Of a DNA stretch of 64,000 nt, positions 1,405 through 63,855 are shown piece by piece. Location: NCBI GenBank assembly GCA_041663045.1, contig JBAZRH010000001.1, positions 276,403-340,402 of the forward strand, given 5' to 3'. Each line of letters opens with the position of its first letter. The stretch's first letter is position 1. The stretch comes from Minisyncoccota bacterium. Lineage in GTDB: Bacteria > Patescibacteriota > Minisyncoccia > Phycocordibacterales > GWA1-40-21. The position numbers and the translations under genes were made by a program. The notes beneath the pieces are model-generated. The model saw only the letters and a list, made by a program, of their open reading frames with translations. It was not told the origin of the DNA and ran no database searches.

Positions 1405-1572
1405 AAACTTGCCTAAAATTTTTGCTAGGGGTGGCAACCTGTTCTTTTTGAAAAGACTTGGGAGGAGTGGCTGACGACGGACAGAGAAAAACTTTAGCAA
1501 AAGTTTTTCGTGCTTTTCAAAAAGAATAGGTTGACAGGACCCCGAGAAAATTTTAGGCAAGTCCGAGTGAGC
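1405..1572. repeat. Long imperfect palindromic intergenic repeat, family C copy 3
   Basis: Outer arms ttgcctaaaattt / aaattttaggcaa and inner arms aacctgttctttttgaaaag / cttttcaaaaagaa. It is about 70% identical to the 25030-25207 element and ends in the motif gtccgagtgagc. Confidence 0.7.
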
Positions 1573-5064: not shown

Positions 5065-7935
5065 TTAAATTACAAAGTTGATTATTTTGTTTTTTACGAA
5101 GATAGTCTTCAGTATTTTCTGACCGGAGAGCCACTTGACTATATCTTGATTTGCTAATGCCTCCTTTCTAACATCTTCTTCGGAAACATCGCTTGACATG
5201 GGAAGCGTTGCTCGGACTTTACCATTTATTTGTACTACTATTTTCACTTTTGCTGATTTTATTTTGGCTTCATCATATTTTGGCCAAGGTTCCACTGCAA
5301 GAAGCTTTTTATTGCCAAGATTAGCCCATACTTCCTCGCACAAGTGCGGAGCAAATGGCGAAAGGATTTTGATAAAAGCCAGATAAGTTTCCTCATCAAT
5401 TTTTTCTTGAGCCTCTAAATGGTTTACAAATATCATCATCGCGGACACGGCGGTATTTGCATTAAACGATTCTATATCTTCCGTAACTTTTTTAATTGTC
5501 TTGTGTAAGAGTGATTGGGTGTCATTTGAATCAATAGTCTTGTCTGAGATTTTCTCCTGTAATTTCCAAACTCTTTCCAAAAATCTTCTTGAACCCACCA
5601 TACTATCTGTACTCCAAGAAATTTCCTGCTCAAAAGGCCCCATGAAGGATTCATAGATTCTCAAAGTATCGGCACCGACATTTTTCACTACTTCATCCGG
5701 ATTTACAACATTGCCATATCTCTTACCCATTTTCCTACCATCGGAACCAAGTATCATACCTTGATTGCGAAGCTGTTTGAAAGGTTCTTTTGTACTTACA
5801 ATACCGATATCATAAAGGAATTTATGCCAGAAACGAGCGTAGATAAGATGTCTTGTAGCATGCTCGGCCCCTCCAACATACATATCCACTGGAGACCAGT
5901 ATTTCTCTTTTTTGGGATCAATCAAAGCTTTACTATTCTTCGTATCCATATATCGGAGATAATACCAAGATGATCCTGCCCATTGAGGCATTGTATTTGT
6001 TTCCCTTTTCGCTTTTTCTCCGCATTTCGGACATTTTGTATTTACCCATTTTGAAATAGCAGCGAGAGGCGATTCTCCTGTGCCTGTCGGTTCATATGAC
6101 TTAACTTTTGGAAGCTTGAGTGGCAAATCTTTTTCTGGGACAGGGACAGCTCCGCATTTCTCACAATGCACCACGGGGATAGGCTCGCCCCAATATCTCT
6201 GTCTTGAGAAAACCCAATCTTGAAGTTTATAATTTTTCGTCATCTTTCCACCGGCAAATTCGGTAATCTCTTTCATTATTTCGGTATTTTTTTTGCCGTC
6301 AAATTTTCCAGAGTTTATCATCACGCCGTCATTTGTATAGGCTATATCTCCCTTTTCTAATCTCTCTAGCCAAATATCCATTTCTGCATGATTCAAAGTG
6401 CCGATAACTATATCTTTCACATTCATCCAAATCACTTCATGCTTTTCCTTCTCTTCCTCGGACATCTCATCTCTCTCTTCGTCTTTCAAATCAAAGCAAA
6501 TGGCGTTTGTATATGCAATTCTGTTTTCATCTTTATGCGCTGCAAAATATTCTGCACGGACTTGTCCACCCAAGACTTTTGGATTGACAAGGTTTTTATA
6601 ACCAGTCTCTTCCCAAGCCTCTCTTCTTGCTGCATCTATAATATTTTCACCTTCATCTACTCCTCCCATTGGAAAAGTCGTCCATGGTTGCTTTTTCCAT
6701 TTCAAGCAAATGATCTTACCGTCTTTAGGATTGCGAATAATTACATGCACGTTTCTCCTTTCAACACTTTTCTTTCCTGCGACTGGTGGATTTCTCTTAT
6801 CAATTCTCTCTGGGATAATCACCTCTTTTATCGGTAAATTATATTTCTTGGCAAAAGCAAAATCGCGGTCGTCGTGTGCGGGCACTGCCATCACGCAACC
6901 TGTACCATAGTTGGCTAAAACATAGTCTGCAATAAATACCGGCACTTTTTCGCCGTTGACTGGATTAATAGCTAATATTCCGCCGAGCTTCACGCCGGTC
7001 TTTTCTTTACCTTCGGCAGTTCTGTCTATTTCACTTTTATTTTTTATTTCTTTTCTGTATTTTTCTACTTCAGCCCAATTTGATATGTGAGATTTATATT
7101 CGTCTACTATCTTATGCTCTGGGGCAATGACGACATAAGATAAGCCAAATAAAGTGTCCGGTCTTGTTGTGAATACCTTTATTTCTCCGATCTCTTTCTT
7201 AAATCTTGAATCATGAATCTTGAATCCTATCTCTGAGCCTTCCGAACGCCCTATCCAATTCTTCTGAAGCTCTTTGATATGCGTAGGCCAATTCAGTGCA
7301 TCAAGATCGTCCAAAAGTCTATCGGCATAATCACGGATTTTGAGCACCCATTGTCGCATCGGTTTTTTTTCTATTGTCGTCCCGCATCTTTCACATTTAT
7401 CACCGTCCAGATCTTCATTTGCCAAACCGGTCTTACAAGATGGGCACCAATTTATCGGCTCATAACTTTCATAAGCCAAACCTTTTTTGAAAAGCTGTAA
7501 GAAAATCCATTGCGTCCATTTATAATACTTTGGATCAGTGGTATTTATCTCGCGAGACCAATCGTAATTCAAACCCATTATTGAAATCTGTTCTTTAAAT
7601 CTTTTTACATTTTTCTTTACGGCAATTTCGGGATTGATTTTCATCTTCATCGCGTACTGCTCCGCAGGCAAGCCAAAAGCGTCCCAGCCCATAGGGTGAA
7701 GCACATTAAAACCGTTCATCTTTTTGAATCTTGAGTAAATATCGGTAGCTATATATCCGCGAGGATGCCCAACATGAAGCCCTTCGCCAGATGGATATGG
7801 GAACATATCCAATACATAGAATTTCGGTTTATTCGAAGTATCTTCCGTCTTAAAGGTCTTTTTGTTTGCCCAAATTTTCTGCCATTTCTTTTCAATTTCT
7901 GAATGATTATAAATGTTTACCTTTTTTGATTTCAT
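5065..7935 (-). CDS. leuS: Leucyl-tRNA synthetase carrying an inserted Nudix hydrolase domain
   Basis: HVGH motif, TRPDT editing-domain motif, WVFSRQRYWG and a KMGKR (KMSKS-like) motif identify LeuRS. A roughly 140 aa insert (residues about 389-530) carries a perfect Nudix box, GGVDEGENIIDAARREAWEETGY. Confidence 0.9.
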   Translation of the reverse strand: MKSKKVNIYNHSEIEKKWQKIWANKKTFKTEDTSNKPKFYVLDMFPYPSGEGLHVGHPRGYIATDIYSRFKKMNGFNVLHPMGWDAFGLPAEQYAMKMKINPEIAVKKNVKRFKEQISIMGLNYDWSREINTTDPKYYKWTQWIFLQLFKKGLAYESYEPINWCPSCKTGLANEDLDGDKCERCGTTIEKKPMRQWVLKIRDYADRLLDDLDALNWPTHIKELQKNWIGRSEGSEIGFKIHDSRFKKEIGEIKVFTTRPDTLFGLSYVVIAPEHKIVDEYKSHISNWAEVEKYRKEIKNKSEIDRTAEGKEKTGVKLGGILAINPVNGEKVPVFIADYVLANYGTGCVMAVPAHDDRDFAFAKKYNLPIKEVIIPERIDKRNPPVAGKKSVERRNVHVIIRNPKDGKIICLKWKKQPWTTFPMGGVDEGENIIDAARREAWEETGYKNLVNPKVLGGQVRAEYFAAHKDENRIAYTNAICFDLKDEERDEMSEEEKEKHEVIWMNVKDIVIGTLNHAEMDIWLERLEKGDIAYTNDGVMINSGKFDGKKNTEIMKEITEFAGGKMTKNYKLQDWVFSRQRYWGEPIPVVHCEKCGAVPVPEKDLPLKLPKVKSYEPTGTGESPLAAISKWVNTKCPKCGEKAKRETNTMPQWAGSSWYYLRYMDTKNSKALIDPKKEKYWSPVDMYVGGAEHATRHLIYARFWHKFLYDIGIVSTKEPFKQLRNQGMILGSDGRKMGKRYGNVVNPDEVVKNVGADTLRIYESFMGPFEQEISWSTDSMVGSRRFLERVWKLQEKISDKTIDSNDTQSLLHKTIKKVTEDIESFNANTAVSAMMIFVNHLEAQEKIDEETYLAFIKILSPFAPHLCEEVWANLGNKKLLAVEPWPKYDEAKIKSAKVKIVVQINGKVRATLPMSSDVSEEDVRKEALANQDIVKWLSGQKILKTIFVKNKIINFVI

Positions 7936-9485: not shown

Positions 9486-9947
9486 ATGTCGAGTATGAGT
9501 ATACATAAAATAATTAAAGACGGAATAAAAGAAGCGATGTTGAAAAAAGATGTATTAAGGCTTACGGTGCTTCGCGGAGTATCTTCTGCCTTTACAAACG
9601 AAATAATCGCAAAAGACATAAAAGGAGATGAATTGGGAGATGAAGAAGCTCTTGCAGTTATACGAAGACTCGTAAAACAGAGAAAAGACTCTATCGAACA
9701 ATTTACAAAAGGTGGCAGACCAGAGCTTGCAAAAGCTGAAGAAGCCGAGATGAAAATACTTGAAGCTTTCTTGCCACAAATGATGAGTGAGGATGAAGTG
9801 AGAAAAGTTGTGGAAGCGAAAATCGCTTCTGCCGGAAATGTGGATAAAACAAAAATCGGACAATTTATCGGCTCCGTGATGAAAGAACTTAAGGGGAAGG
9901 CGGATGGAGCAGTGGTGAAAAAGGTTGTTGAGGAATTGGTGAAATAA
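9486..9947 (+). CDS. yqeY: GatB/YqeY domain protein
   Basis: YqeY-like helical domain (LTVLRGVSSAFTNEII...ELAKAEEAEMKILEAFLP). An upstream GTG at 9459 is possible, but the ATG at 9486 is more likely. Confidence 0.7.
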   Translation: MSSMSIHKIIKDGIKEAMLKKDVLRLTVLRGVSSAFTNEIIAKDIKGDELGDEEALAVIRRLVKQRKDSIEQFTKGGRPELAKAEEAEMKILEAFLPQMMSEDEVRKVVEAKIASAGNVDKTKIGQFIGSVMKELKGKADGAVVKKVVEELVK

Positions 9948-10070
9948 AAGCTCCCTCCCATCACTATTTTCCACCAGTGTGCCTTCATCCCGAAGAAAAT
10001 CATAATCGCTGTTCTATACGAAAAATCCCAGAGTCGCTCCCGCACCTCCCGCCCGTGAGGTTTTTCTGTT
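9948..10070. repeat. Intergenic repeat, family B copy 1
   Basis: Shares ccattttc(c/t)caccagtgtgccttca...gaaaatcat..tcgctgttctatacgaaaaatc with 42128-42320 and, inverted, 53500-53645. Confidence 0.75.
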
Positions 10071-10171: not shown

Positions 10172-10417
10172 ATGGGAAGAAAAAGGAAATGGACAGATGA
10201 GGAGCTGATAAAAGAGGCTGGCAGATTGTTCCGAAAAGGAAAGCCCGCGTTTGACGCCGTGAAAGCTGTATTCAATAAGCATGGCATATTCAACCGAGAG
10301 AGGTTTCGTAGAATCCGCCAAGCGATACTTGGTCAGCCTACTGAGCCACACCGGGAGCAACCGCCCCAAGACGATCGCAAGCCGTGGTATTTAGATGAAC
10401 GAACCGGCATGGCCTGA
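10172..10417 (+). CDS. Small basic hypothetical protein (81 aa)
   Basis: Strong promoter, RBS and downstream terminator. GC is noticeably higher than in neighbouring genes. Confidence 0.55.
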   Translation: MGRKRKWTDEELIKEAGRLFRKGKPAFDAVKAVFNKHGIFNRERFRRIRQAILGQPTEPHREQPPQDDRKPWYLDERTGMA

Positions 10418-10428
10418 TCAGCACCTCG

Positions 10429-10461
10429 AACACCCCCGCCTACTACGGGGGTGTTTTTTTA
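10429..10461 (+). terminator. Rho-independent terminator
   Basis: cacccccgcc-tacta-cgggggtg followed by TTTTTTT. Confidence 0.8.
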
Positions 10462-10574
10462 TTTATGTGACCTCACGGGGAATCGGTCACGAGTATTTTT
10501 CTGCTGAAAAATCTCGCTACCCCGCCTCGCGCCGTCACGCTCCGGCTTTCGATTCCCCTGGACTTAAATAAAAA

Positions 10575-10606
10575 TCACCAGCGAATAATGCTGGCGATTT
10601 TTATTT
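10575..10606. terminator. Bidirectional terminator downstream of tRNA-Glu
   Basis: caccagcg-aataat-gctggcg, with a T-run on both strands. Confidence 0.65.
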
Positions 10607-10609
10607 ATG

Positions 10610-10681
10610 TGACCCTACAGAGAATCGAACTCTGATTACAGCCTTGAGAAGGCCGTGTCCTAACCGTTAGACGATAGGGCC
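10610..10681 (-). tRNA. tRNA-Glu (anticodon CTC)
   Basis: The reverse complement GGCCCTATCGTCTAACGGTTAGGACACGGCCTTCTCAAGGCTGTAATCAGAGTTCGATTCTCTGTAGGGTCA folds as a cloverleaf with a TTCGATT T-loop. The anticodon loop is TTCTCAA. No CCA is encoded. Confidence 0.85.
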
Positions 10682-10797
10682 AATATTAAATTGTTTAAAC
10701 TAAAATCTCGAACCCTGAATTTACCTTCTTACAGAAGCCGTATACCTATTCTGTTTTATATTTCGCTTCACTCATATAAAACCATCATAGGTCTTTC

Positions 10798-10950
10798 ATT
10801 TGGGTCCCTTGCCCAAATTTCAACCTCTCGAAGGCCGTGTCCTAGTCACAAGTCAAAGTCTGCTGACTTTGCTTGCGACCCCCTCTCGTGCCGTCGCACT
10901 CCGATCTTGCGGTTGGGTCCCACCCCAACCTCACGTTAGACGATGAGGCC
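10798..10950 (-). pseudogene. Degenerate tRNA-Glu-like pseudogene with a roughly 93 nt insertion in the D-loop
   Basis: The reverse complement begins GGCCTCATCGTCTAACG and ends TAGGACACGGCCTTCGAGAGGTTG, homologous to the tRNA-Glu 5' half and anticodon arm. The T-arm and acceptor 3' half are replaced by a tttgggtccc...gggacccaaa hairpin that also occurs inside the repeat at 63645-63735. Confidence 0.55.
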
Positions 10951-11009
10951 AAAAATCAGCGGGCATTTTGCGAAACAAAACGCCCGTCTCATATTTTTAT
11001 AACATAATA

Positions 11010-21181: not shown

Positions 21182-21994
21182 TCATTTTTTATTATTCGGA
21201 ATCAAGATTTCTACCCATTTTAGCTCTAAAACATTTATTGGGCTTTTAAACAAGACTGTCTGAAATGAGTCAGCCTCTTTATATTCCACCTTTTCAACTA
21301 TACCAAAAATATTTGGAGAAATGGAGGGGATCACCACATCGTCACCTTCTTTAATATCTATCTCCCTTGGGAGCTCAATCTTAAAATTTCCTCCCCCTAT
21401 ACCGACAGCTTCTTTTAAAACATTGTTTGAGCCAACCAAGACTAGAACTTTCTCATCTGGTGAAGAATAGAGTATTACTTTTGAAGAGTTTGCATAGACC
21501 TCTGACACTCTGCCGATAAAGATATTGCCATCTGCAGAGACTTTGTCTCCAACCACTACACCAGCATCTGTACCGATATCTACGATCAAGGTGTCATATG
21601 GTGAGAAAGATGGCTTAACTAAAATACTCGCCAAGACAGCCTTTGAATAAATACTTTTCCTACCAAGTAGGTCTTTTAGATCAGTGTTTTCTTGAATTAA
21701 GATTCTATTCAATTCTGTGTCTTTTTTACCTTTTGTCATTTCACTTTGAAGCAACTGATTTTCTGCTATGAGAGCAGATTTCGACTTCAACCTCTCAAGG
21801 CTATTTGAGAAAAAAGAATTGAGGCTTGATCCAACTTTCCAAAAAGGTTTCCCTACCCAGAAAAGAATTGCTCTGGCTGATAATGTACTAAATGTAAAAA
21901 TGACGAGGAAAAACAAGACTATGACAATAAGCCACAGTCTTTTTCTGTTCCTTGAGTTATTAAAACTATTTCTTTGGGGGTAATTCGTCCTCAT
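21182..21994 (-). CDS. mreC: Rod shape-determining protein MreC
   Basis: N-terminal TM helix, a coiled coil, and two beta-rich MreC domains. Confidence 0.8.
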   Translation of the reverse strand: MRTNYPQRNSFNNSRNRKRLWLIVIVLFFLVIFTFSTLSARAILFWVGKPFWKVGSSLNSFFSNSLERLKSKSALIAENQLLQSEMTKGKKDTELNRILIQENTDLKDLLGRKSIYSKAVLASILVKPSFSPYDTLIVDIGTDAGVVVGDKVSADGNIFIGRVSEVYANSSKVILYSSPDEKVLVLVGSNNVLKEAVGIGGGNFKIELPREIDIKEGDDVVIPSISPNIFGIVEKVEYKEADSFQTVLFKSPINVLELKWVEILIPNNKK

Positions 21995-23036
21995 TTTGTA
22001 TCAAAACTTCTCTATATTCATCAATGTTTTCAAGAATAATACCAGCTCCCCTTGCTACTGCTGTAAGCGGGTCGTCAGCAATCCTAACCGGTATTTTTAG
22101 ATATTCTGTTAAAAGTGTATCTAGACCCTTAATGAGTGCACCTCCTCCAAAAAGATAAATACCTCTCTGCATAATATCGGAAAGAATCTCCGGTGGGGTT
22201 GTCTCAAGCACTTCCTTTGTACCCTCTACAAGTGCTTCTATAGAAGAAGACATAGCTTCACGGACATCACCGTCTGTAATAATAACTTCTCTCGGTAGAC
22301 CAGTAATAAGGTCTCGTCCTTTTATAGAAGTCTCCATTGATTCATTTGGTACAACAGCTCCGATAGCAATTTTTACATTTTCTGCAGTTTTTTCCCCGAT
22401 CAATATTTTAAATTCACTTCTGATATAAGAGATAATGTCGTTGTTTAGCTTGTCTCCCGCTATTCGAAGATTTTTTGATCTTACAATACCAGAAAGCGAA
22501 ATTACTGCGATATCAGATGTTCCCCCGCCAATATCTATAACCATATTCCCAACTGGTGATTTTATCGGCAGACGGATTCCTATTGCTCCAGCCATTGGCT
22601 CTTCTACTATATGTACCTCGCGAGCTCCAGCGTTTCTAGTGGCGTCTTTTACCGCTCTTATTTCAACGTTTGTAACACCGGAGGGTACTCCAACTACTAC
22701 ACGTGGGCCAAGCATTTTGGGAGAGATTTCTTCAGCCTTTCTGATAAGATGAGCTATCATTTCTTCTGTAACTTCAAAATCTGAAATCACTCCGTCTACA
22801 AGCGGTCTTACAGCAACAATGTGTGCCGGTGTCCTACCGAGCATTTCTTTGGCTTGAGTACCGACAGCCACCACACGTCCCGTCTTTTGATTCATAGCTA
22901 CCACGGATGGCTCATTTATCACGATACCTTTCCCTGCAAGATACACCAAGGTATTTGCTGTACCCAAATCAATCCCAATATCATTGGAAAATCGTCTATA
23001 TAGTTTTCTTTTTGTGTCTTCAATATACTTAAACAT
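21966..23036 (-). CDS. mreB: Rod shape-determining protein MreB
   Basis: IGIDLGTANTLVY phosphate-1 motif with full actin-fold homology. Likely start is MFKYIEDT at 23036; the ORF-track extension to 23096 is probably spurious. Confidence 0.9.
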   Translation of the reverse strand: MFKYIEDTKRKLYRRFSNDIGIDLGTANTLVYLAGKGIVINEPSVVAMNQKTGRVVAVGTQAKEMLGRTPAHIVAVRPLVDGVISDFEVTEEMIAHLIRKAEEISPKMLGPRVVVGVPSGVTNVEIRAVKDATRNAGAREVHIVEEPMAGAIGIRLPIKSPVGNMVIDIGGGTSDIAVISLSGIVRSKNLRIAGDKLNNDIISYIRSEFKILIGEKTAENVKIAIGAVVPNESMETSIKGRDLITGLPREVIITDGDVREAMSSSIEALVEGTKEVLETTPPEILSDIMQRGIYLFGGGALIKGLDTLLTEYLKIPVRIADDPLTAVARGAGIILENIDEYREVLIQNEDELPPKK

Positions 23037-23126
23037 GATTGATTTTTTATGAGCAAAGCGAATTTTAAAAATCATCACCCTGTGAAATGCCGACACCGAC
23101 GGCGTATTTCACTCTGGTATTTCGCC

Positions 23127-24929: not shown

Positions 24930-25029
24930 TAAACACGTTTGTAAGCGACCGAAGCCCCGCCATTTTCTCACCATTGCCGAAAGCTCCCTCCACCCACTTT
25001 CTCTACGATCTAGCGGACTCTGTAAGTTA

Positions 25030-25207
25030 GCGAGCGAGGATTTATAAATATCTTTGCTAGGGGTGGCGAGCCTGCCCCTTTTGAAATGCCTTGGGAGCGC
25101 GACGGCGCGAGCACGAGGAATTTTCTAGCAAGAAAATATCCGTGCATTTCAAAAGGGGCAGGTCGACAGGACCCCGTGAAAATATTTATCAAAACCCGAG
25201 CGAGTTT
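25030..25207. repeat. Long palindromic intergenic repeat, family C copy 1
   Basis: tttgctaggggtggcgagcctgcccctttt...aaaaggggcaggtcgacaggacccc with the central gcgcgacggcgcgagca. Flanked by agcgagcgagg and cccgagcgag. Confidence 0.75.
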
Positions 25208-26302
25208 TTAATGAATCAACTTCAAAATATCCTTATAAGTAATAAAAATCATCAGGCCGATAAGCAGTGCAAAACCGATTCCATTGGCCCAATTGGCTAT
25301 CGCCGGTTTTATTTTCCTTCTGAAGACTGCTTCTATGAAAACGAATAAAACTCTTCCACCATCAAGCGCCGGAAATGGCACTGCATTTAATACGGCCAAG
25401 TTTATAGAAATAAGAGCAATGAATCCGAGAAGATATGACGCGCCGAGATTCCTCGCCTGTCCCACCATTCCCGCTATTCCCACAGGACCTGAAATTTGCG
25501 ATATTAAACCTTTTTCACCTGTGAAAGCCCCGGCAATAAATTTCCACATACCGACAGCGACGACTTTTATTTCAAGGATGGTAAGTTTGACCCCCTCCCA
25601 AAAAGAGCTGAAAAATCCGAGCTTAAGAGTCCCCGCAAAATCCATTGCTATACCTATAGCCTTTTTACCTTCTGTTATCCCTGCAATCGGGACGATGTTC
25701 ACACTACTCGTAGATACACCTCTTTTTATCTCTAAATTCACAGCCGCTACACTTTCCGAAATAATTTTCTGAATTTGTTCTATCTTAGGGTTTGCCAGAT
25801 TCTGCTTATCTCCAGAAATATTTATAATAAAATCCCCTTCTTTGAGACCTGCTCTTTCTGCTGGAGATCTTTCGGCGACAGAGATTATAATCACACCTGC
25901 GTCTTTTATTTTACTTGCGTAACTATCACTCACAGAAGTAAGCATTCCAAGATTGAAAGAAATTGAAATCAAAATCCAAGCAAAGACAATATTTAAAAAT
26001 ATTCCTGATAGGAGGACTACAATTTGCTTCCATTTTGAAGCATTTACAAAGCTTCTGGCAGAATCGGCACCTTTCATAGATTCTTCGTTCGGATCCTCAC
26101 CAAATATCTTTACATAACCTCCGAAGGGGATAAGGTTCAAAGCGTATTTTGTCTCACCTCTCTGCCAGCCAAAGACTTTTGGCGGAAAGCCAATGGCGAA
26201 TTCATCTACTCGAATACCAAACATCTTCGCAGAGATAAAATGCCCAAGCTCGTGGACAAAGACGAGAACCGCAAGAATTATTAAAAAAAGTAATATGGTC
26301 AT
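25208..26302 (-). CDS. rseP: Site-2 protease RseP (M50 zinc metalloprotease with PDZ domain)
   Basis: HELGH zinc motif in TM1, a PDZ domain, and a C-terminal LDGG motif. Confidence 0.85.
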   Translation of the reverse strand: MTILLFLIILAVLVFVHELGHFISAKMFGIRVDEFAIGFPPKVFGWQRGETKYALNLIPFGGYVKIFGEDPNEESMKGADSARSFVNASKWKQIVVLLSGIFLNIVFAWILISISFNLGMLTSVSDSYASKIKDAGVIIISVAERSPAERAGLKEGDFIINISGDKQNLANPKIEQIQKIISESVAAVNLEIKRGVSTSSVNIVPIAGITEGKKAIGIAMDFAGTLKLGFFSSFWEGVKLTILEIKVVAVGMWKFIAGAFTGEKGLISQISGPVGIAGMVGQARNLGASYLLGFIALISINLAVLNAVPFPALDGGRVLFVFIEAVFRRKIKPAIANWANGIGFALLIGLMIFITYKDILKLIH

Positions 26303-26307
26303 GTTTT

Positions 26308-26486
26308 AAAAAGTTGAGGATTTGTAATTTGTTGTGTCCGCAGGCTCCTTTTCTGGTGCGATGTGGTGTAATTTTGCGAGAAGTAATCTTTGAGCAAAAG
26401 TATACCACATCGCAAGCCGCCGAGGATTAGGAAATTTTTCGGCTGGGAAAAATTTCTGCACAACAAATTGTAAATCCTCAACCTTG
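26308..26486. repeat. Long near-perfect palindromic repeat, family A copy 1
   Basis: aaagttgaggatttgtaatttgttgtgtccgcagg...ggtgcgatgtggtgtaattttgcgagaagtaatctttgagcaaaagtataccacatcgcaagcc...ctgcacaacaaattgtaaatcctcaacc. Confidence 0.8.
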
Positions 26487-28730: not shown

Positions 28731-28888
28731 ACAGCCGAAAGACGGCTTTAGAAAGCCATTTTTCGGCTAGGCGAGCGAGTCGGGTGCTTTTAAAAAGCAT
28801 TGCACAGCGCGACGGCGCGAGCATAGCAAAAAGCCAGCAGGCTTTTATGCGCGGTTTTTAAAAGCACCCGATGAGCGAGCCGTCTTGA
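28731..28888. repeat. Long palindromic intergenic repeat, family C copy 2
   Basis: cagccgaaagacggc...gagcgagccgtcttg outer arms, gggtgcttttaaaaagc / gcggtttttaaaagcaccc inner arms, and the same central gcgcgacggcgcgagca as 25030-25207. Confidence 0.75.
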
Positions 28889-28893
28889 ATTCG

Positions 28894-29907
28894 TTATCTC
28901 TTCGAAATAATACTCTTCTTGTAAGTATCCAAGTGTTCTAACGCAATCCCCGTCCCTTTTGCCACACAGTAAAGAGGATCTTTTGCCACAACAGCTTTCA
29001 CACCAGTGCGTCTGAAAACAAGCTCGGCGAGATTGCGAAGCATTGAAGAACCACCGGTCATAATAATCCCTTTATCAATAATATCGGCAGCGAGCTCCGG
29101 CGGAGTCTCCTGCAATACATCTTTTATCGCTTTTATCATATCTTTGAGTTCTTTGGCGATAGCTTTTACTATTTCATTGGTCTTTATTTCCGTCGAGCGA
29201 GGAAGTCCTGTAAGAAAATCTCTTCCTTTTATAATAAGCGAAAGCTCTTCCTCTACCGGCACAGCACTACCTATTTTTATTTTAATATCTTCTGCAGTTT
29301 TATCTCCTATCGCCAAGTTGAATGTTTTTTTAATATAATCAGCAATCGCAGCATCTATTTTATTGCCCGCACATTTTACAGAAGTTGAAGAGACAATCCC
29401 TCCAAGAGAAATCACGGCGACATCTGTCGTCCCTCCTCCGATATCCACCACCATATGTCCCATCGGCTCATATATAGGAATACCTGCGCCGATAGCTGCA
29501 AGAATCGGCTCTTTCACGACATAAGCATTTTTGGCCCCAGCACGGATAGCCGCTTCCACCACAGCTCTTCTCTCTGTAGATGTAATACCAGCCGGCACAG
29601 AGACCATCACTTCTGGTTTAAAAATATTCCATTTGCCGAGAGCTTTGTCTATAAAATATCGAAGCATCGCTTCGGTCACACGATAGTCGGCGATCACACC
29701 ATCTCTCATCGGACGATATGCAATAATACTATCCGGTGTCTTACCTATCATATTTTTCGCTTTCACACCTACGGCAAGGATTTTATTGTCTTGTTCAGAT
29801 ACAGCGACAACAGACGGCTCAAAAAGGACAACACCTTTCCCCGGCACAAATACGAGAGTATTCGCGGTTCCCAAATCTATACCTAATTTTCTGGTGAAAA
29901 TGGACAT
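28894..29907 (-). CDS. mreB: Second MreB/Mbl-like actin homolog
   Basis: LGIDLGTANTLVF plus the full actin fold. A paralog of the 21966-23036 gene. Confidence 0.85.
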   Translation of the reverse strand: MSIFTRKLGIDLGTANTLVFVPGKGVVLFEPSVVAVSEQDNKILAVGVKAKNMIGKTPDSIIAYRPMRDGVIADYRVTEAMLRYFIDKALGKWNIFKPEVMVSVPAGITSTERRAVVEAAIRAGAKNAYVVKEPILAAIGAGIPIYEPMGHMVVDIGGGTTDVAVISLGGIVSSTSVKCAGNKIDAAIADYIKKTFNLAIGDKTAEDIKIKIGSAVPVEEELSLIIKGRDFLTGLPRSTEIKTNEIVKAIAKELKDMIKAIKDVLQETPPELAADIIDKGIIMTGGSSMLRNLAELVFRRTGVKAVVAKDPLYCVAKGTGIALEHLDTYKKSIISKR

Positions 29908-40609: not shown

Positions 40610-42127
40610 ATGCCATATGAAGATATAATTTCATTGATGGACTCACCATCGAAAGATGATGTAGCGCTTATAAAAAAAGCAACAACTTTTGCTGAAGAAG
40701 CACATAAGGACATAAAGAGAAAATCTGGTGAACCTTATTTCAACCATGTCTTTGAGACAGCTAAAACTCTAGCAAGCTTCAAGACTGACTCTGCAACGAT
40801 AGCTGCAGGGCTTTTACATGATTCAATAGAAGATGGTGTGGCGACAGAAGAAGAAATAAAGAAAGGATTTGGAGATGAAATACTCTTTTTAGTAAACGGG
40901 GTTACAAAGCTTGGAAAAGTAAAGTATCGAGGAGCGGAAAGACATATAGAAAGCTTGAGGAAATTCATGGTGGCAATGTCACAAGATATTCGAGTACTCA
41001 TCATTCGTCTTGCCGACCGTCTTCATAATATGAAGACTTTACAATATGTCCGACCCGACAAACAAAAGAGAATTGCCCTTGAAACTCTCGAGATTTACGC
41101 ACCACTCGCCTACCGTCTTTCTATAAGGAAACTTTCACGTGAGCTTGAAGACCTCTCGTTTGAATATGTAAGCCCAGAGGAATATGATGGTACAGTAGTT
41201 CTCTTAAAACAAAAGAAAGACGAGACCTTACCACGATTGGAGAAATTTATAAAATCTGTAAAGAAAGCCCTAGCTAAGGAAAGAATGACAAATATAAAAA
41301 CAGACTATAGGCAGAAAGGAATATATAGTCTCTTTCAAAAACTCAAATCTAAAGGAAACGATATAGAAAAGGTCTATGATATATTGGCGTTGCGTGTAAT
41401 GCTACCCGATGTCCAAGATTGCTATAAAGCTCTCGGAATAATACACGGTGTGTGGAGACCGCTTCCAGGAAGAATAAAAGATTATATAGCGTTTCCAAAA
41501 CCAAACGGCTATCAAAGCTTGCATACTACAGTTTTCACTGGTGACGGTTCAGTAGTAGAAGTACAGATAAGAACGGAAGAAATGCACAGAAATGCTGAAT
41601 TCGGTATCGCCTCTCATATTTCATACAAAGATAGTCACAAAAATGGGAACAAAAGTTCTGATATTGATTGGTTTAGACAATTTCTACCAAGGACTATTAA
41701 TTTTGCAAAGGTAAATAAATTAAATAATAAAAAAGAAATGCCAGAGTGGATTACAGAACTTGCTGATTCTCAAGATGGAATAAAGACTAGTGGAGAAAGA
41801 GAGGAATTCTTAGAAGATCTAAAGGCCGACTTCTTCTGTCAAAGGATTTTTGTGTTTACACCAAAAGGAGAGGTAGTAGATTTGCCTACTGGTTCATCTA
41901 CTCTTGATTTCGCATATGCGATTCATTCTGACGTAGGGGACCACGCAAGTGGAGCGAAGATAAATGGCAAACTCGTAGCCATGAAAACAGAATTAAATAA
42001 TGGTGATATTGTAGAGATTAGCACAAGTAAATCTAGTAAACCAAGTTCCAAATGGTTGGAAATTGTAAAGACGAATATGGCGAAAAGACATATTAATAAT
42101 TATTTGGAGAAGCAGAAGAAAAAATAA
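40610..42127 (+). CDS. rel: Short bifunctional RelA/SpoT-homolog (HD hydrolase + synthetase + TGS domains)
   Basis: HD motif HDSIED, synthetase region (RIKDYIAFPKPNGYQSLHTTV) and a TGS domain. No ACT domain. Confidence 0.85.
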   Translation: MPYEDIISLMDSPSKDDVALIKKATTFAEEAHKDIKRKSGEPYFNHVFETAKTLASFKTDSATIAAGLLHDSIEDGVATEEEIKKGFGDEILFLVNGVTKLGKVKYRGAERHIESLRKFMVAMSQDIRVLIIRLADRLHNMKTLQYVRPDKQKRIALETLEIYAPLAYRLSIRKLSRELEDLSFEYVSPEEYDGTVVLLKQKKDETLPRLEKFIKSVKKALAKERMTNIKTDYRQKGIYSLFQKLKSKGNDIEKVYDILALRVMLPDVQDCYKALGIIHGVWRPLPGRIKDYIAFPKPNGYQSLHTTVFTGDGSVVEVQIRTEEMHRNAEFGIASHISYKDSHKNGNKSSDIDWFRQFLPRTINFAKVNKLNNKKEMPEWITELADSQDGIKTSGEREEFLEDLKADFFCQRIFVFTPKGEVVDLPTGSSTLDFAYAIHSDVGDHASGAKINGKLVAMKTELNNGDIVEISTSKSSKPSSKWLEIVKTNMAKRHINNYLEKQKKK

Positions 42128-42320
42128 ACTCCCTCCGCCCCGCCATTTTCTCACCAGTGTGCCTTCACCCCAAAGAAAATCATAGTCGCTGTTCTATACG
42201 AAAAATCAAGAACTCGCCACATCAGAATGTGTCTCAAACAACTTGATTTTTCTAAACAGCTCTTTGATTTTACTTGGGGTTCTCGGCAATGGTGAGAAAA
42301 TGGCGGGGCTTCGGTCAACA
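42128..42320. repeat. Intergenic repeat, family B copy 2 (long palindromic form)
   Basis: ccgccccgccattttctcaccagtg...caatggtgagaaaatggcggggcttcgg arms. Its core matches 9948-10070 and, inverted, 53500-53645. Confidence 0.8.
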
Positions 42321-46815: not shown

Positions 46816-46848
46816 AAAGGGGCGCGCCTTACGGCGCGCCCCCTCCAT
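46816..46848 (-). terminator. Terminator following rnpB
   Basis: ggggcgcgcc-ttac-ggcgcgcccc. On the minus strand it is followed by TTTCTCATTATT. Confidence 0.6.
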
Positions 46849-47203
46849 AACCTTTATACCTATAAGCCGAATTCTGTCTCCTACTTTTTACAGTAAGTAG
46901 ACGGTCATCTATCTGGGCTACTGATTACTCAGTCGCTCAAGCGGCGCTCCAAGCATCAAATGGTGCTCGGCACGGCCTTGCACAGAGGTAAGGATTTTGT
47001 CGTTGCACTTCTGCGTCTCCGCAAAATTATTCCCGAAGGAATCCTAGCCTTTCGGCATCGGCGTCACTGTTCGCACCTCTTAGATTGCTCTAGACGGGCG
47101 TTACCCGCTACCCAAATCCATCCGCCCGAAGGCGTACGCTGTGTTCGGACTTTCCTCCAGCTATTTGCATAGCCAGCGACCATCCAATACAAAGGCAAAA
47201 TAA
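46848..47203 (-). ncRNA. rnpB: RNase P RNA (bacterial type)
   Basis: The reverse complement contains GGAGGAAAGTCCGAACAC (the P4 5' strand GGAAAGUCCG), GGGTAACGCCCG, AGATAGATGACCGTCTAC and the 3' region GACAGAATTCGGCTTATAGG (P4 3' strand ACAGAAnnCGGCUUA). A TTGCAT-N17-TATACT promoter sits upstream on the minus strand. Local GC is about 50%. Confidence 0.85.
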
Positions 47204-53003: not shown

Positions 53004-53149
53004 GATTGATTTTTAAGGAGTGAAATGACTATAAAAATCATCACCCTGCGAAATGGAGTTTGCTTTGGCAAACGACATATTTCACTGGGGTCTATTTCAC
53101 TTGGTTAATTATATCATAATAAAATACTGACAAGTAGGGCGGGTGTGGA

Positions 53150-53312
53150 GAAAAAGCTCATTCACATCCCCGCTTTTCTGTGCAGAAATTTTCCCCAGCC
53201 GGAAAATTTCCTAATCCTCGGCGGCTTGCGCTGTGGTATACTTTTACTCGAAGATTACTTCTCGCAAAATTACACCACATCGCACCAGAAAAGGAGCCTA
53301 CGGACACAGAAA
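53150..53312. repeat. Family A repeat copy 3 (inverted orientation)
   Basis: Reverse complement of the 26308-26486 and 61520-61757 cores: ctgtgcagaaattttccccagccggaaaatttcctaatcctcggcggcttgcgctgtggtatactttt...ctcgcaaaattacaccacatcgcacc...ggacacag. Confidence 0.8.
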
Positions 53313-53499
53313 AATGGGGACGTTCATTCGCTTACAGCAGAAAAATACGGCTTTGTAAAGCCATACTTCATAAGCGAGCGAGATTCTCAATTTTCTAGCA
53401 TTGCCGAGAACCCGTGATAGAAGCAGTGTTCACTCTTATATTAGCTTCCTCGGCTCGGAAATGAAAAAGGAATTTTCATTTCTCTCGCTCTACGTCGCT

Positions 53500-53645
53500 A
53501 ATAAATCAAGGAGATGTTTAGAAAAATCAAGTTGTTTGAGACACATTCTGATGTGGCGAGTTCTTGATTTTTCGTTAAGAACATCGACTATGATTTGACT
53601 CTGGTGAAGGCACACTGCTAGAAAATTGAGAATCGAGCGAGCGTT
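53500..53645. repeat. Family B repeat copy 3 (inverted orientation)
   Basis: gagacacattctgatgtggcgagttcttgatttttcg is the reverse complement of the 42190-42230 segment. Ends with gaatcgagcgagcg. Confidence 0.8.
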
Positions 53646-59181: not shown

Positions 59182-59307
59182 AAGCTCGCTCGGATATCCA
59201 ATTTTGAGACCCGCATTCCGCCATGGGCGGATGATCCCTCTCCCGCCGTCGCGGTCCGTAACTCTCAAAATTAAATATCCTCGCTCGTTTACTTGCAGAC
59301 AAATTCA

Positions 59308-61519: not shown

Positions 61520-61757
61520 TTCGTAAGCGAGCGAGACTTGTGATTTTTGAGCATTACATGCTTTAATCTATTTCATGAGCGAGCGAGTATTCCGATTTTG
61601 TTGTGTCCGCAGGCGAGCTTGCATGGTGCGATGTGGTGTAATTTTGCGAGAAGTAATCTTCGAGCAAAAGTATACCACATCGCAAGCCGCCGAGGATTAG
61701 GAAATTTTTCGGCTGGGGAAAATTTCTGCACAACAAAATTGGGATACGAGCGAGCTA
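61520..61757. repeat. Family A repeat copy 2
   Basis: About 95% identical to the 26320-26475 core. Flanked by three CGAGCGAG motifs (61523, 61577, 61746). Confidence 0.8.
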
Positions 61758-61796
61758 TTTGTGTCAAACCCCTTTCCGTATTATAATGCCCTTTAC

Positions 61797-62385: not shown

Positions 62386-63582
62386 ATGACAAAACAGAAA
62401 AAAACGAGAAGGGTGGCTGAATCAAAATTTATAAACTTTACACCAATAGACAAAGCTGTTGAAGCTGCGATTTATTATGGCTTTACACCGACAAAACACC
62501 CTAAGGCAAATAAAGAAGATCTTGTAAGGATTTCTGCATTAAAAGAAAGTTGGGCCAAAAGCTGCGCCGAAATGCCTTGGGTTTTCTCTACAGAATTTGC
62601 TGAAGAAAGAGCTGCGTTTTTGAGAGAATATTTTGAACAAAGCATGAATATACTCCCCCAGCCAGTAATGCTCGTCTATGAAAGCGAAACAGGAAAAGAA
62701 AGAGGGAAAAATTCTTTCAATCTTGAAGTTGTAGGTACACCAAAGAGTATTGCCGAAGCCCTTCTTATAAAAACAGCTGTAGCCATACTCGAAGATAATG
62801 GCTATAAGAATCTTTCAATAGAAATCAATAGTATTGGTGACAAAGAATCTTTAAATAAATTTGCAAGAGAGCTTACAAACTACTACAAGAAAAATATAAA
62901 TGAGCTCTCTCCTCATTGCAGGCAAAATTTTAAGAAAGATGCCTTTTATGTTCTCAATTGTGATAAGTGTGAGTGTACAAAGTTAAAAGAAGGGGCACCC
63001 ACTTCTGTGGGATGTCTTTCTGATGAGAGCCGGGTACAATTTAAAGAAGTCTTTGAATATATTGAGACAATGGGAATACCTTTTAAGATAAATAACTGCC
63101 TTGTACCAGATAGAAAGTATTGTTCACAGACTATCTTTGAAATTAAAGATAATGAAAGTGAAGATGCCCTAGCTATCGGCTTTAGATACGACGGGCTTGC
63201 ACAGAAAATCGGTCACAAGAAAGATTTACCTGGAGTTGGATTAAAAGTCTTCCTTAAGAAAAAGTCTACTATTAAAAAAGTCTCAAAACTTAATAAACCC
63301 ACTGCTTTCTATGTGCAACTTGGCGATGATGCAAAACATAAAAGTTTGGAAGTAATAGAGGCTCTTAGAAAAGAAAAAATATTTATTTATCATATGCTTG
63401 GAAGGGATAAATTTGGTAGCCAGTTTGCACTTGTAGAAAAGTCTAAGGTCCCTTATGTGATTATTATGGGCAAAAAAGAATCGCTGGAAAACTCCGTGAT
63501 GATAAGAGAAAATGCCACGAGAACACAAGAGACCATCAAAATAAGTGATTTAGCAAAGTATTTGAAGAAACTTAAGGCCTAA
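62386..63582 (+). CDS. HisRS-like class II aaRS paralog (catalytic-like core plus anticodon-binding domain; degenerate motif 2)
   Basis: HisRS-like insertion region, IGFRYDGLAQKIG (motif-3-like), and a C-terminal class II anticodon-binding domain. Motif 2 arginines are not conserved (YESETGKERGKNSFNLEVVG). Confidence 0.6.
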   Translation: MTKQKKTRRVAESKFINFTPIDKAVEAAIYYGFTPTKHPKANKEDLVRISALKESWAKSCAEMPWVFSTEFAEERAAFLREYFEQSMNILPQPVMLVYESETGKERGKNSFNLEVVGTPKSIAEALLIKTAVAILEDNGYKNLSIEINSIGDKESLNKFARELTNYYKKNINELSPHCRQNFKKDAFYVLNCDKCECTKLKEGAPTSVGCLSDESRVQFKEVFEYIETMGIPFKINNCLVPDRKYCSQTIFEIKDNESEDALAIGFRYDGLAQKIGHKKDLPGVGLKVFLKKKSTIKKVSKLNKPTAFYVQLGDDAKHKSLEVIEALRKEKIFIYHMLGRDKFGSQFALVEKSKVPYVIIMGKKESLENSVMIRENATRTQETIKISDLAKYLKKLKA

Positions 63583-63855
63583 AAGCTCGCTCATATCACT
63601 ATTTTCCTGTGCAGAAATTTTCCCCAGCCGAAAAATTTCCTAACTCCTTACAGGAGCAGTACACCTTTCACATTTTGAGTACAAAACGTTCAAGGTCTTT
63701 TATTTGGGTCCCTTACCCAAATCTCAACTCGGCGGCTTGCGCTGTGGTATACTTTTGCTCGTGAATACACTTCGCAAAATTACACCACATCGCACCGCAC
63801 AAGCTCGCCTGCGGACACAGGAAAATAGTAATATTCGCTCGCTTATCGCTTGCAT
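63583..63855. repeat. Family A repeat copy 4 (inverted) interrupted by a roughly 90 bp insertion
   Basis: The arms match 53150-53312. The insertion (about 63645-63735) contains tttgggtcccttacccaaat, shared with the pseudo-tRNA region at 10798-10820. Confidence 0.75.

Follow-up and report, generated by a model that had tools for sequence, protein, structure and literature searches.

A conserved three-way-junction core shared by palindromic repeats of Patescibacteria

Rickettsia palindromic elements (RPE; Ogata et al. 2000), whose hosts are Rickettsiales, are reportedly palindromes of 100-150 bp that are dispersed between the genes of host-dependent bacteria with reduced genomes. They are also said to lie in frame within protein genes, where they are translated, and within RNA genes. 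Reportedly, they have no transposase, no clear terminal repeats, and no target duplication, and the mechanism is said to be unknown. Other described systems are similar in other ways. REP sequences are short imperfect palindromes, usually in inverted doublets (REPINs), and the gene of RAYT, a Y1 transposase, is often flanked by REPs. The attC sites of integrons have inverted core sites (RYYYAAC...GTTRRRY) and a variable apex, and they go with an integrase and a cassette array.

Here we describe palindromic repeats from a member of the Patescibacteria. By the window, we mean the whole 64,000-nucleotide stretch of DNA that we analyzed. Our best explanation, which we hold with moderate confidence, is that these repeats (family C) are the local population of small, non-autonomous, selfish insertion elements that occur throughout the Patescibacteria, that are mobilized in trans, that have a constrained core and fast-evolving arms, and that resemble RPE. 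A search of the open-access full-text literature, including a query with the 15-mer sequence itself, returned no description of this small insertion element, which is apparently undescribed so far.

Hairpins with a common core

An earlier note on this DNA had listed three long palindromes (C1, C2, and C3; Table 1), of which C1 and C3 were said to share their arms, and C1 and C2 only their central core. All of this is borne out. Folded as single-stranded RNA, C1, C2, and C3 have minimum free energies of -77.1, -81.4, and -75.6 kcal/mol, with z-scores against dinucleotide shuffles of -6.1, -7.9, and -7.6. The alignment of C1 with C3 spans 172 nt at 73% identity (E 7e-23), with the cores at 65% and the arms more similar than that (Table 1). 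C1 and C2 align over 123 nt at 67% identity (E 1e-8); they have the core in common, including an exact 18-mer, and their arms are near random. The 17-mer GCGCGACGGCGCGAGCA is found exactly at 25097 and 28807 and with three mismatches at 10524 on the minus strand; about 0.02 chance matches are expected in the window. The list of three was incomplete: our home-made covariance model (R1), whose E-values are rough, finds six copies in the window, and the three that had been missed are D, E, and F.

Table 1. Repeats and associated features in the window
Feature	Position	Strand	Remarks
C1	25030-25207	+	Complete short-form element; long palindrome between direct GAGCGAG copies at 25032-25038 and 25198-25204
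C1 core	25089-25148	+	69.1 bits, E 4e-23 (covariance model R1)
C2	28771-28880	+	Short-form element, second subfamily; inner arms CTTTTAAAAAG
C2 core	28799-28857	+	59.4 bits, E 1e-19
C3	1405-1572	+	Diverged relative of C1; arms 74-78% identical to those of C1
C3 core remnant	1467-1516	+	24 bits, E 8e-7; recognized by the covariance model although the core sequence is not intact
D	10484-10548	-	Long-form core; 70.2 bits
D left arm GGGGAATCG	10549-10557	-	Complementary to T-loop/T-stem fragment 3' of the core
tRNA 3' fragment CGATTCCCCGTGAGGTCA	10468-10485	-	From T-loop position 56/57 to the 3' end
E	10843-10907	-	Long-form core in the D-loop of a tRNA-Glu-like gene; 59 bits
H1 hairpin GGTTGGG-GTGGGA-CCCAACC	10911-10930	-	GGGACCC module, precedes core E
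Invaded tRNA-Glu-like gene, 5' part GGCCTCATCGTCTAACG	10934-10950	-	Compared with tRNA-Glu at 10609-10681
GGGACCC module without adjacent core (TTTGGG-CAAGGGA-CCCAAA)	10789-10824	-	After the anticodon arm of the invaded tRNA
Second copy of GGGACCC module	63693-63728	-	Within an insertion in a family A palindrome
F	59184-59290	-	Short-form element flanked by GAGCGAG
F core	59206-59262	-	Covaried P2 (CCGC/GCGG), different P3 loop; 28.9 bits, E 1.5e-8

The core is a folded module of about 60 nt with two small hairpins, whose loops are GACG (P2) and AGCA (P3). P2 is built, from the outside in, of a short outer helix, an internal loop (GGA/GA, invariant), a GCGC stem, and the GACG loop. P3 has a two-part stem with a bulged A and the AGCA loop; its stem sequence varies between copies, and the pairing is always kept. 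For example, in C1, P2 is GCGC-GACG-GCGC with a GGA/GAG loop, P3 is GGAATTTTCT-AGCA-AGAAAATATCC, and these two hairpins and the arms form a three-way junction. In C3, P2 is degenerate while the P3 hairpin and its AGCA loop are retained. C1 adjoins the stop codon of an rseP-like gene (25208-26302, minus strand), and C2, with GCGAGCGAG and GAGCGAGC on its two sides, is located downstream of mreB (28894-29907, minus strand). The window has two mreB paralogues 6 kb apart, the other being at 21966-23096.

Similar modules are widespread. We scanned one genome per species with a search pattern that fixed the inner stem of P2, which is hence also fixed in the seed set, and found at least 120 loci. At least 110 or so of these are in metagenome-assembled genomes (MAGs) of Patescibacteria, mainly of the Parcubacteria type, and about 10 of the matches listed are chance matches in high-GC genomes. 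The host labels among the matches listed include Patescibacteria, Parcubacteria/Paceibacterota, Nomura-, Kaiser-, Adler-, Yonath-, Niyogi-, and Colwellbacteria, Minisyncoccia, and "Saccharibacteria." The other genomes were seen as 8-kb pieces (loci with numbers such as L126), and in 728 kb of other loci, R1 finds 136 copies. We rejected a phage origin: the pattern scan of IMG/VR gave only two high-GC chance matches in coding DNA, and blastn of phage records was empty. A known RNA family is ruled out by the lack of any Rfam match to the core. At gathering thresholds, the 4,227 Rfam families identified only tRNA, rRNA, tmRNA, and RNase P in the whole window and 18 long-form loci (described below), and sensitive scans of C1, C2, and the tRNA regions gave only noise far below threshold. 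(The RNase P RNA, at 46847-47195, reaches only 114 bits with the bacterial class A model.)

The fold is borne out by compensatory changes. In an alignment of 110 cores, 96.9% of the cells are paired, and all nine P3 pairs show compensatory changes; for instance, the column pair 35-57 is CG in 44 cores, GC in 34, and AU in 19. None of 500 shuffles of these cores reach the observed values, and sliding the partners lowers the pairing to 27-57%. Among 34 cores of the long form, 97.5% of the cells are paired, 16 of the 22 pairs show compensatory changes (including the three pairs of the outer helix of P2), and a G.U pair at columns 32-60 is kept in 30 of the 34. Given this pairing, these compensatory changes, and this G.U pair, the fold is under selection on one defined strand. 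The copies found by the model also show covariation in the inner stem of P2: it is GUGC/GCAC in E (a compensatory change), CCGC/GCGG in F, GGGC/GCCC in L126, and GGUU/AGCC in L035. In the model-derived set, all four of these pairs covary with changes on both sides, in an alignment that leans towards structure as it was fitted to the model.

The arms evolve quite differently from the core. Across nine MAGs, cores of the C1 subfamily are 93.5% identical and their arms are 51-55% identical. Within a single genome (L010, L023, and L062 from JAUYLB01), the copies have both arms and core in common. The C2 type, with inner arms CTTTTTAAAAG, is also found in L126, L187, and L107. C1 and C2 are two old subfamilies, each of them widespread, and C3 is a diverged relative of C1. 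Such near-identity of a core across a phylum is unusual for selfish repeats.

The element comes in two architectures. In the short form, the core is at the apex of a palindrome of 100-180 bp with a long perfect stem of about 31 bp, so that the three-way junction is at the tip. We know that the core is the tip of a long palindrome because the flanks pair with each other: for 77 short-form cores with 49 nt of flank on each side, the median duplex has 31 bp, -38.9 kcal/mol, and a z-score of -7.1. The long form has an extended P3 (GGUCGCG...GUGACC) and flanks that are unpaired (z -0.4 for 33 cores), and it lies next to or inside tRNA genes. At some loci, there are tandem or inverted pairs of 2-3 cores within 200-500 nt, some of them with degenerate P2 (L032:2104-2297, L111:40-165, and L012:2529-3030), which suggests that insertions were nested or happened repeatedly at one place. 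Also, downstream of mreB in L137 (3512-3650) is a palindrome that keeps the GACG and AGCA loops on unrelated AT-rich stems. Its inner hairpins are in the opposite order, i.e., it is permuted, and the covariance model misses it.

Another family of palindromes in the window, family A (26310-26485, 53145-53320, 61575-61760, and 63581-63846), also has a three-way-junction apex, one arm of which is a hairpin of about 28 nt; it ends ...CGAG-GAUUAG-hairpin. These apices match the core model weakly (E 0.02-0.8), and we did not include them in the family. A distant relationship may exist.

Copies in and beside tRNA genes

Half of the long-form cores (17 of 34) have a tRNA gene 15-130 nt upstream, and all 17 share its orientation. 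At five loci (L024, L065, L074, L076, and L077), the core is followed by a perfect 18-nt copy of the 3' end of the tRNA, starting from T-loop position 57; the duplicate is partial in D and in L101 and L110. The long-form core is preceded by a short segment that is complementary to the neighboring tRNA sequence. Other long forms are directly at the 3' end of a tRNA (L025, L064, and L104), in the D-loop of a tRNA-Glu-like gene (E, L099, and L111), or, in L066, in the anticodon stem of a truncated copy of tRNA-Arg that sits beside the intact tRNA-Arg.

In the window, core D is 61 nt downstream of tRNA-Glu(CTC) (10609-10681) and co-oriented with it. The tRNA 3' fragment beside D, at 10485-10468, shares the trailer CATAAATAAAAA with tRNA-Glu(CTC), and its acceptor strand UGAGGUC matches the 5' strand GGCCTCA at 10950-10944. 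The gene that E invades resumes at 10844-10818 with the 3' strand of the D-stem and the anticodon arm. A pseudo-tRNA had been proposed at 10798. This stands in that there is a tRNA-Glu-like 5' part at 10950-10934 on the minus strand, with an insertion in its D-loop, but neither ARAGORN nor Rfam calls this gene a tRNA. Viewed as a whole, the minus strand of 10400-10960 contains a tRNA-Glu-like gene in three pieces, separated by the D-loop insertion (E), an insert of about 330 nt, and the T-loop insertion (D). The insert of about 330 nt includes the intact tRNA-Glu(CTC) and its terminator. Similar nests are present in L111 and L099.

We considered whether the tRNA-linked copies are introns because of the guide-like pairing. 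We rejected both a group I-like intron and a bulge-helix-bulge tRNA intron: the element is too small, it lacks the terminal G, and the copies within genes are translated instead of being spliced.

Insertion sites and neighboring repeats

The earlier note had taken these repeats to be insertion-type DNA, and we agree: close relatives differ in having or lacking a copy, and some copies lie within tRNA genes or, in frame, within protein genes. It had also confined them to intergenic DNA, which is not the case. In 80 metagenomic mreB loci (83-95% amino-acid identity to the window's gene), there are 6 cores in 392 kb. Only L126 and L187 have a C2-type element right after mreB in the same orientation as in the window, and the element is absent from over 70 of the 80 orthologous loci. 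At this position, most of the other relatives have a simple terminator hairpin or go straight on to the next gene; L137 has the permuted variant. L187 and the closely related L188, whose flanks are 93-99% identical, give two comparisons of a filled site to an empty one.

We identified in-frame copies in a glmM-like gene (L120, 42 residues) and in ksgA (L011, 31 residues). In L120, a palindrome of 126 nt separates Pfam domains I and II in a gene of the phosphoglucosamine mutase type and is read through. For KsgA, three orthologues (P0007, P0011, and P0016) do not have the 31-residue insert, and many others have a homologous insert, LGRSDGDGQRKFSAENFRGES, which is the translated core. Both arms are inside the insert, and because no more than 4 nt of the palindrome come from the native sequence, the inserted unit is the whole palindrome. 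This insertion is old and has been inherited vertically, so some copies may be domesticated rather than active. In our KsgA alignment (A5), P0013, P0019, and P0031 have unrelated inserts at the same position (for example, ...SRPDHSKNL... or ...GPRPQPDHSKTF...). This site seems to be a tolerant hot spot for insertions, and the unrelated inserts possibly derive from other element families.

Copies show no preference for one strand of the genes around them: between co-directional genes, 22 are on the genes' strand and 24 are on the opposite strand. A further 20 copies are between convergent genes and 9 are between divergent genes. It had been suggested that a transposase, integrase, or HNH endonuclease gene might accompany the repeats. 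For these and for reverse transcriptase, Pfam searches of the roughly 50 larger ORFs of the window, which are housekeeping genes or have no match, found none, and there was no enrichment near 110 other copies in the 8-kb pieces. Nor did all-against-all clustering of 1,766 ORFs from 110 loci give any family that is present in more than 9 loci. (One of the housekeeping genes, the leucyl-tRNA synthetase at 5065-7935 on the minus strand, has a NUDIX hydrolase domain at residues 393-513, inserted behind the editing domain.)

There is no sign of a general target-site duplication: over 73 copies, the longest direct match between the outer flanks has a mean length of 3.1 nt, which equals the value for shuffles. 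At L126 and at site 2 of L187 there are direct repeats of 7-9 bp (9 bp at L187 site 2), which are AT-rich and could be due to chance. The idea of a core that enters the loop of an existing hairpin had fitted the T-loop copies in tRNAs. For the short form, both this and the idea that the arms are inverted copies of the target are ruled out by ksgA, with both arms inside the 31-residue insert. Also, the empty site in L188 has a different small hairpin that is not kept in L187. Contigs from the same sample (Logan) contained no empty sites and stop at repeats. Three of them (L001, L122, and L123, from SRR18595301), which carry the window's rseP, mreB, and yceG, stop within about 50-100 nt of these genes, at the palindromes. 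The repeats appear to fragment assemblies.

Direct copies of GAGCGAG surround palindromes of several families, both in the window's genome and in L107, L002, L021, L075, L041, and L137. In the window, the pairs are 25032/25198, 28773/28873, 53376/53635, 59185/59280, 61529-61581/61748, and 63586/63834, and no solitary intergenic GAGCGAG was found (20-64000). The bracketed palindromes are sometimes chained (61527-61754 and 53374-53641), and the bracketed element adjoins the stop codon of the upstream gene, as in TAA-AAGCUCGCUC and TAA-AAGCTCGCTC. In other genomes, the same positions have a purine-rich GUCGAAGG or GAGAAAAG, which forms an internal loop within a longer stem. A further repeat family, AAATAAA-CTCCCTCC...CCATTTTCTCACCA..., is at 9942-10027, 42122-42316, 24947-24987, and 53503-53596; its copies are 80-95% similar, are in both orientations, and start right after stop codons.

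Some modularity is real: the core accompanies the GGGACCC hairpin module at some loci and is missing at others. The two copies without a core in the window (Table 1) had been recognized in the earlier note as a shared module, tttgggtcccttRcccaaat, and this holds: they are 92% identical over 36 nt. A hairpin of the form GUGAG-NNNGGG-NNGGGA-CCCNNN-GCAAGRCC precedes the core in E and in L066, L109, and L035. In L031 and L037, as in the two window copies, there is no core and other sequences follow. The motif GGTGTACTGCTCCTGTA or GTGTACTCAC comes after the GGGACCC hairpin or interrupts tRNA 3' fragments (window 63650-63700 on the minus strand, L031, L037, L044, L055, L057, and L063), and it may be the end of another type of element.

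Explanations and known systems

If family C is a selfish element, then a factor encoded elsewhere would copy the whole palindrome and insert it as one unit. This factor would act in trans and would recognize the conserved junction, its cis-acting site, in an intermediate of single-stranded DNA or of RNA, and the arms would need only to pair and would otherwise be free to drift. So we would explain the combination of the same core with different arms by the strong constraint on the junction and the weak constraint on arm sequence. The tRNA-linked form would integrate at T-loop position 56/57, with duplication of the 3' part of the tRNA. As for the specific route, strand-specific recognition by a recombinase or by an HUH-type enzyme in trans seems the most likely to us, with low confidence. 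The tRNA 3' duplications would suggest a route like that of tyrosine recombinases, while the strand-specific fold and the direct flanking motifs would suggest an HUH-like one; given that there is neither orientation bias nor a candidate gene, both may be possible. The random orientation relative to genes argues against lagging-strand-biased insertion of the IS608 type.

A different view is that the junction is a structured RNA that serves the host, by binding a conserved protein (such as a kink-turn-type binder or a tRNA-processing factor) and acting in processing, stability, or termination in tRNA operons and 3' UTRs, with its spread being incidental. We consider this rather unlikely. Several observations are in its favor. 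The GGA/GA loop and the GACG and AGCA loops are invariant while unpaired, and G.U pairs are kept on one strand only; sequence identity extends across a phylum; both loops are retained in the L137 variant, whose stems are entirely different; copies are depleted between divergent genes; and the perfect co-orientation of tRNA-adjacent long forms with their tRNA genes would suit co-transcription. Loops that do not vary, a loop of the tandem G.A type, and G.U pairs that are kept are more what one would expect of an RNA that binds a protein than of a DNA site. On the other hand, short forms are antisense to genes as often as sense, the element is missing from the great majority of orthologous mreB loci, copies break tRNA-like genes and are translated within ksgA and glmM, and there is no match to any Rfam family. 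The two views are compatible, since a functional RNA module could be part of a mobile element. We tentatively raise the possibility, which we doubt, that the 60-nt junction is a new class of structured mobile element or non-coding RNA that is specific to the Patescibacteria. The variable segment 5' of the scaffold, which is complementary to the target (the T-loop, D-loop, or 3' end of the tRNA), is reminiscent of a guide joined to a scaffold and could direct insertion by base pairing, in which case the short form would be a SINE-like derivative.

The mosaic of arms and cores had been attributed to modular shuffling, i.e., to continual recombination of arms, cores, and the GGGACCC hairpin between families by a system acting on intergenic DNA. 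In its favor, the GGGACCC hairpin is found with the core at four loci (E among them) and without it at four others, cores are nested or in tandem in L032, L111, and L012, and GAGCGAG brackets several families in the window's genome. But shuffling is not required for the arm and core pattern, which differential constraint accounts for (conserved cores with divergent arms within the C1 subfamily). Furthermore, other genomes have the same subfamilies and, within them, the same inner arms (L126, L187, and L107 for the C2 type), the three copies from JAUYLB01 are alike in arms and core, and what inserted in ksgA was a whole palindrome. As a general explanation, we think that shuffling is quite improbable. 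The refuting condition that had been named, similarity by chance or by low complexity, has almost no chance of being correct. The arms are indeed AT-rich and in part low-complexity, and the 9-bp duplication at L187 could be chance. Nevertheless, a shared 17-mer is not expected in the window, the model's E-values go down to 1e-23, and the core shows covariation at over 100 independent loci.

Although the genomes of Patescibacteria are very small, about 1 kb of the window goes to six copies of the element, and the module is present in more than 100 MAGs. The element is a ready marker for insertion events in a group where there is hardly any genetics, and it is a likely cause of assembly breaks. 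It is also a source of extra peptide segments in conserved enzymes (KsgA and GlmM), and it disrupts or duplicates tRNA genes. Our covariance model could serve for annotating these elements. In its conservation, the core is like a functional RNA, and in its behavior it is like selfish DNA; identifying its partner would reveal either a new mechanism of mobilization or a new RNA-protein system.

Like REP/REPIN-RAYT systems and the palindromes derived from IS200/IS605, family C consists of multi-copy extragenic hairpins that would be recognized by their shape on one strand, there is no general target duplication, and conserved short motifs beside the hairpin are direct instead of inverted (in the window's genome, GAGCGAG on both sides). 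Unlike REPs, the element has no GTAG or CGTC tag at the foot of the stem; the conserved part is the asymmetric apex, not the stem; no Y1 transposase gene was found in the roughly 50 larger ORFs of the window or enriched near the 110 other copies; and there is no orientation bias. Like a classical MITE, it is a small, non-coding, multi-copy hairpin that is patchy among relatives and is mostly downstream of genes. However, the arms pair within each copy while their sequences and termini differ between subfamilies and between genomes (51-55% identity), and without conserved arm termini the element is no classical MITE. Also unlike MITEs, there is no target duplication of fixed length, and the GAGCGAG repeats are specific to some genomes. 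No parent insertion sequence was found in the window or in the 8-kb flanks of the 110 copies.

The long form is reminiscent of integrative elements that target tRNA genes, including those that lack an integrase, are flanked by att sites, and can be mobilized in cis: it leaves an intact tRNA, followed by the element and then by a direct repeat of the 3' end (18 nt). But the repeats enclose only about 120-190 nt, which are non-coding and include no integrase, and other copies are in the D-loop, in the anticodon stem, or directly at the 3' end of a tRNA. In contrast to the attC sites of integrons, the flanking motifs are direct, the apex is conserved, and Pfam identified no integrase in the roughly 50 larger ORFs of the window. 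In a kink-turn, tandem sheared G.A pairs come after a bulge of three nucleotides, with a helix on either side. When compared by sequence pattern, the core is like this in having a helix, an unpaired purine, and tandem G-A/A-G positions next to a second helix, which are invariant in the element; it is unlike a kink-turn in that the bulge is of one nucleotide rather than three, or is a 3x3 GGA/GAG loop in many short forms.

Our best reading likens family C to RPE. Like RPE, the element is small, palindromic, and dispersed, can be in frame and translated (in L120 and L011), is missing from some orthologues of the genes that carry it, also lies in RNA genes, and has no conserved termini, no general target duplication, and, in the sequences scanned, no transposase. 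Unlike RPE, it has an asymmetric three-way-junction core that is deeply conserved, far beyond a single genus, and it has a second form that is not palindromic and is tied to tRNAs. Its hosts, the Patescibacteria, are another phylum, and the likeness that we see is one of behavior. Therefore, we say that the element works like RPE and not that it is a member of that family.
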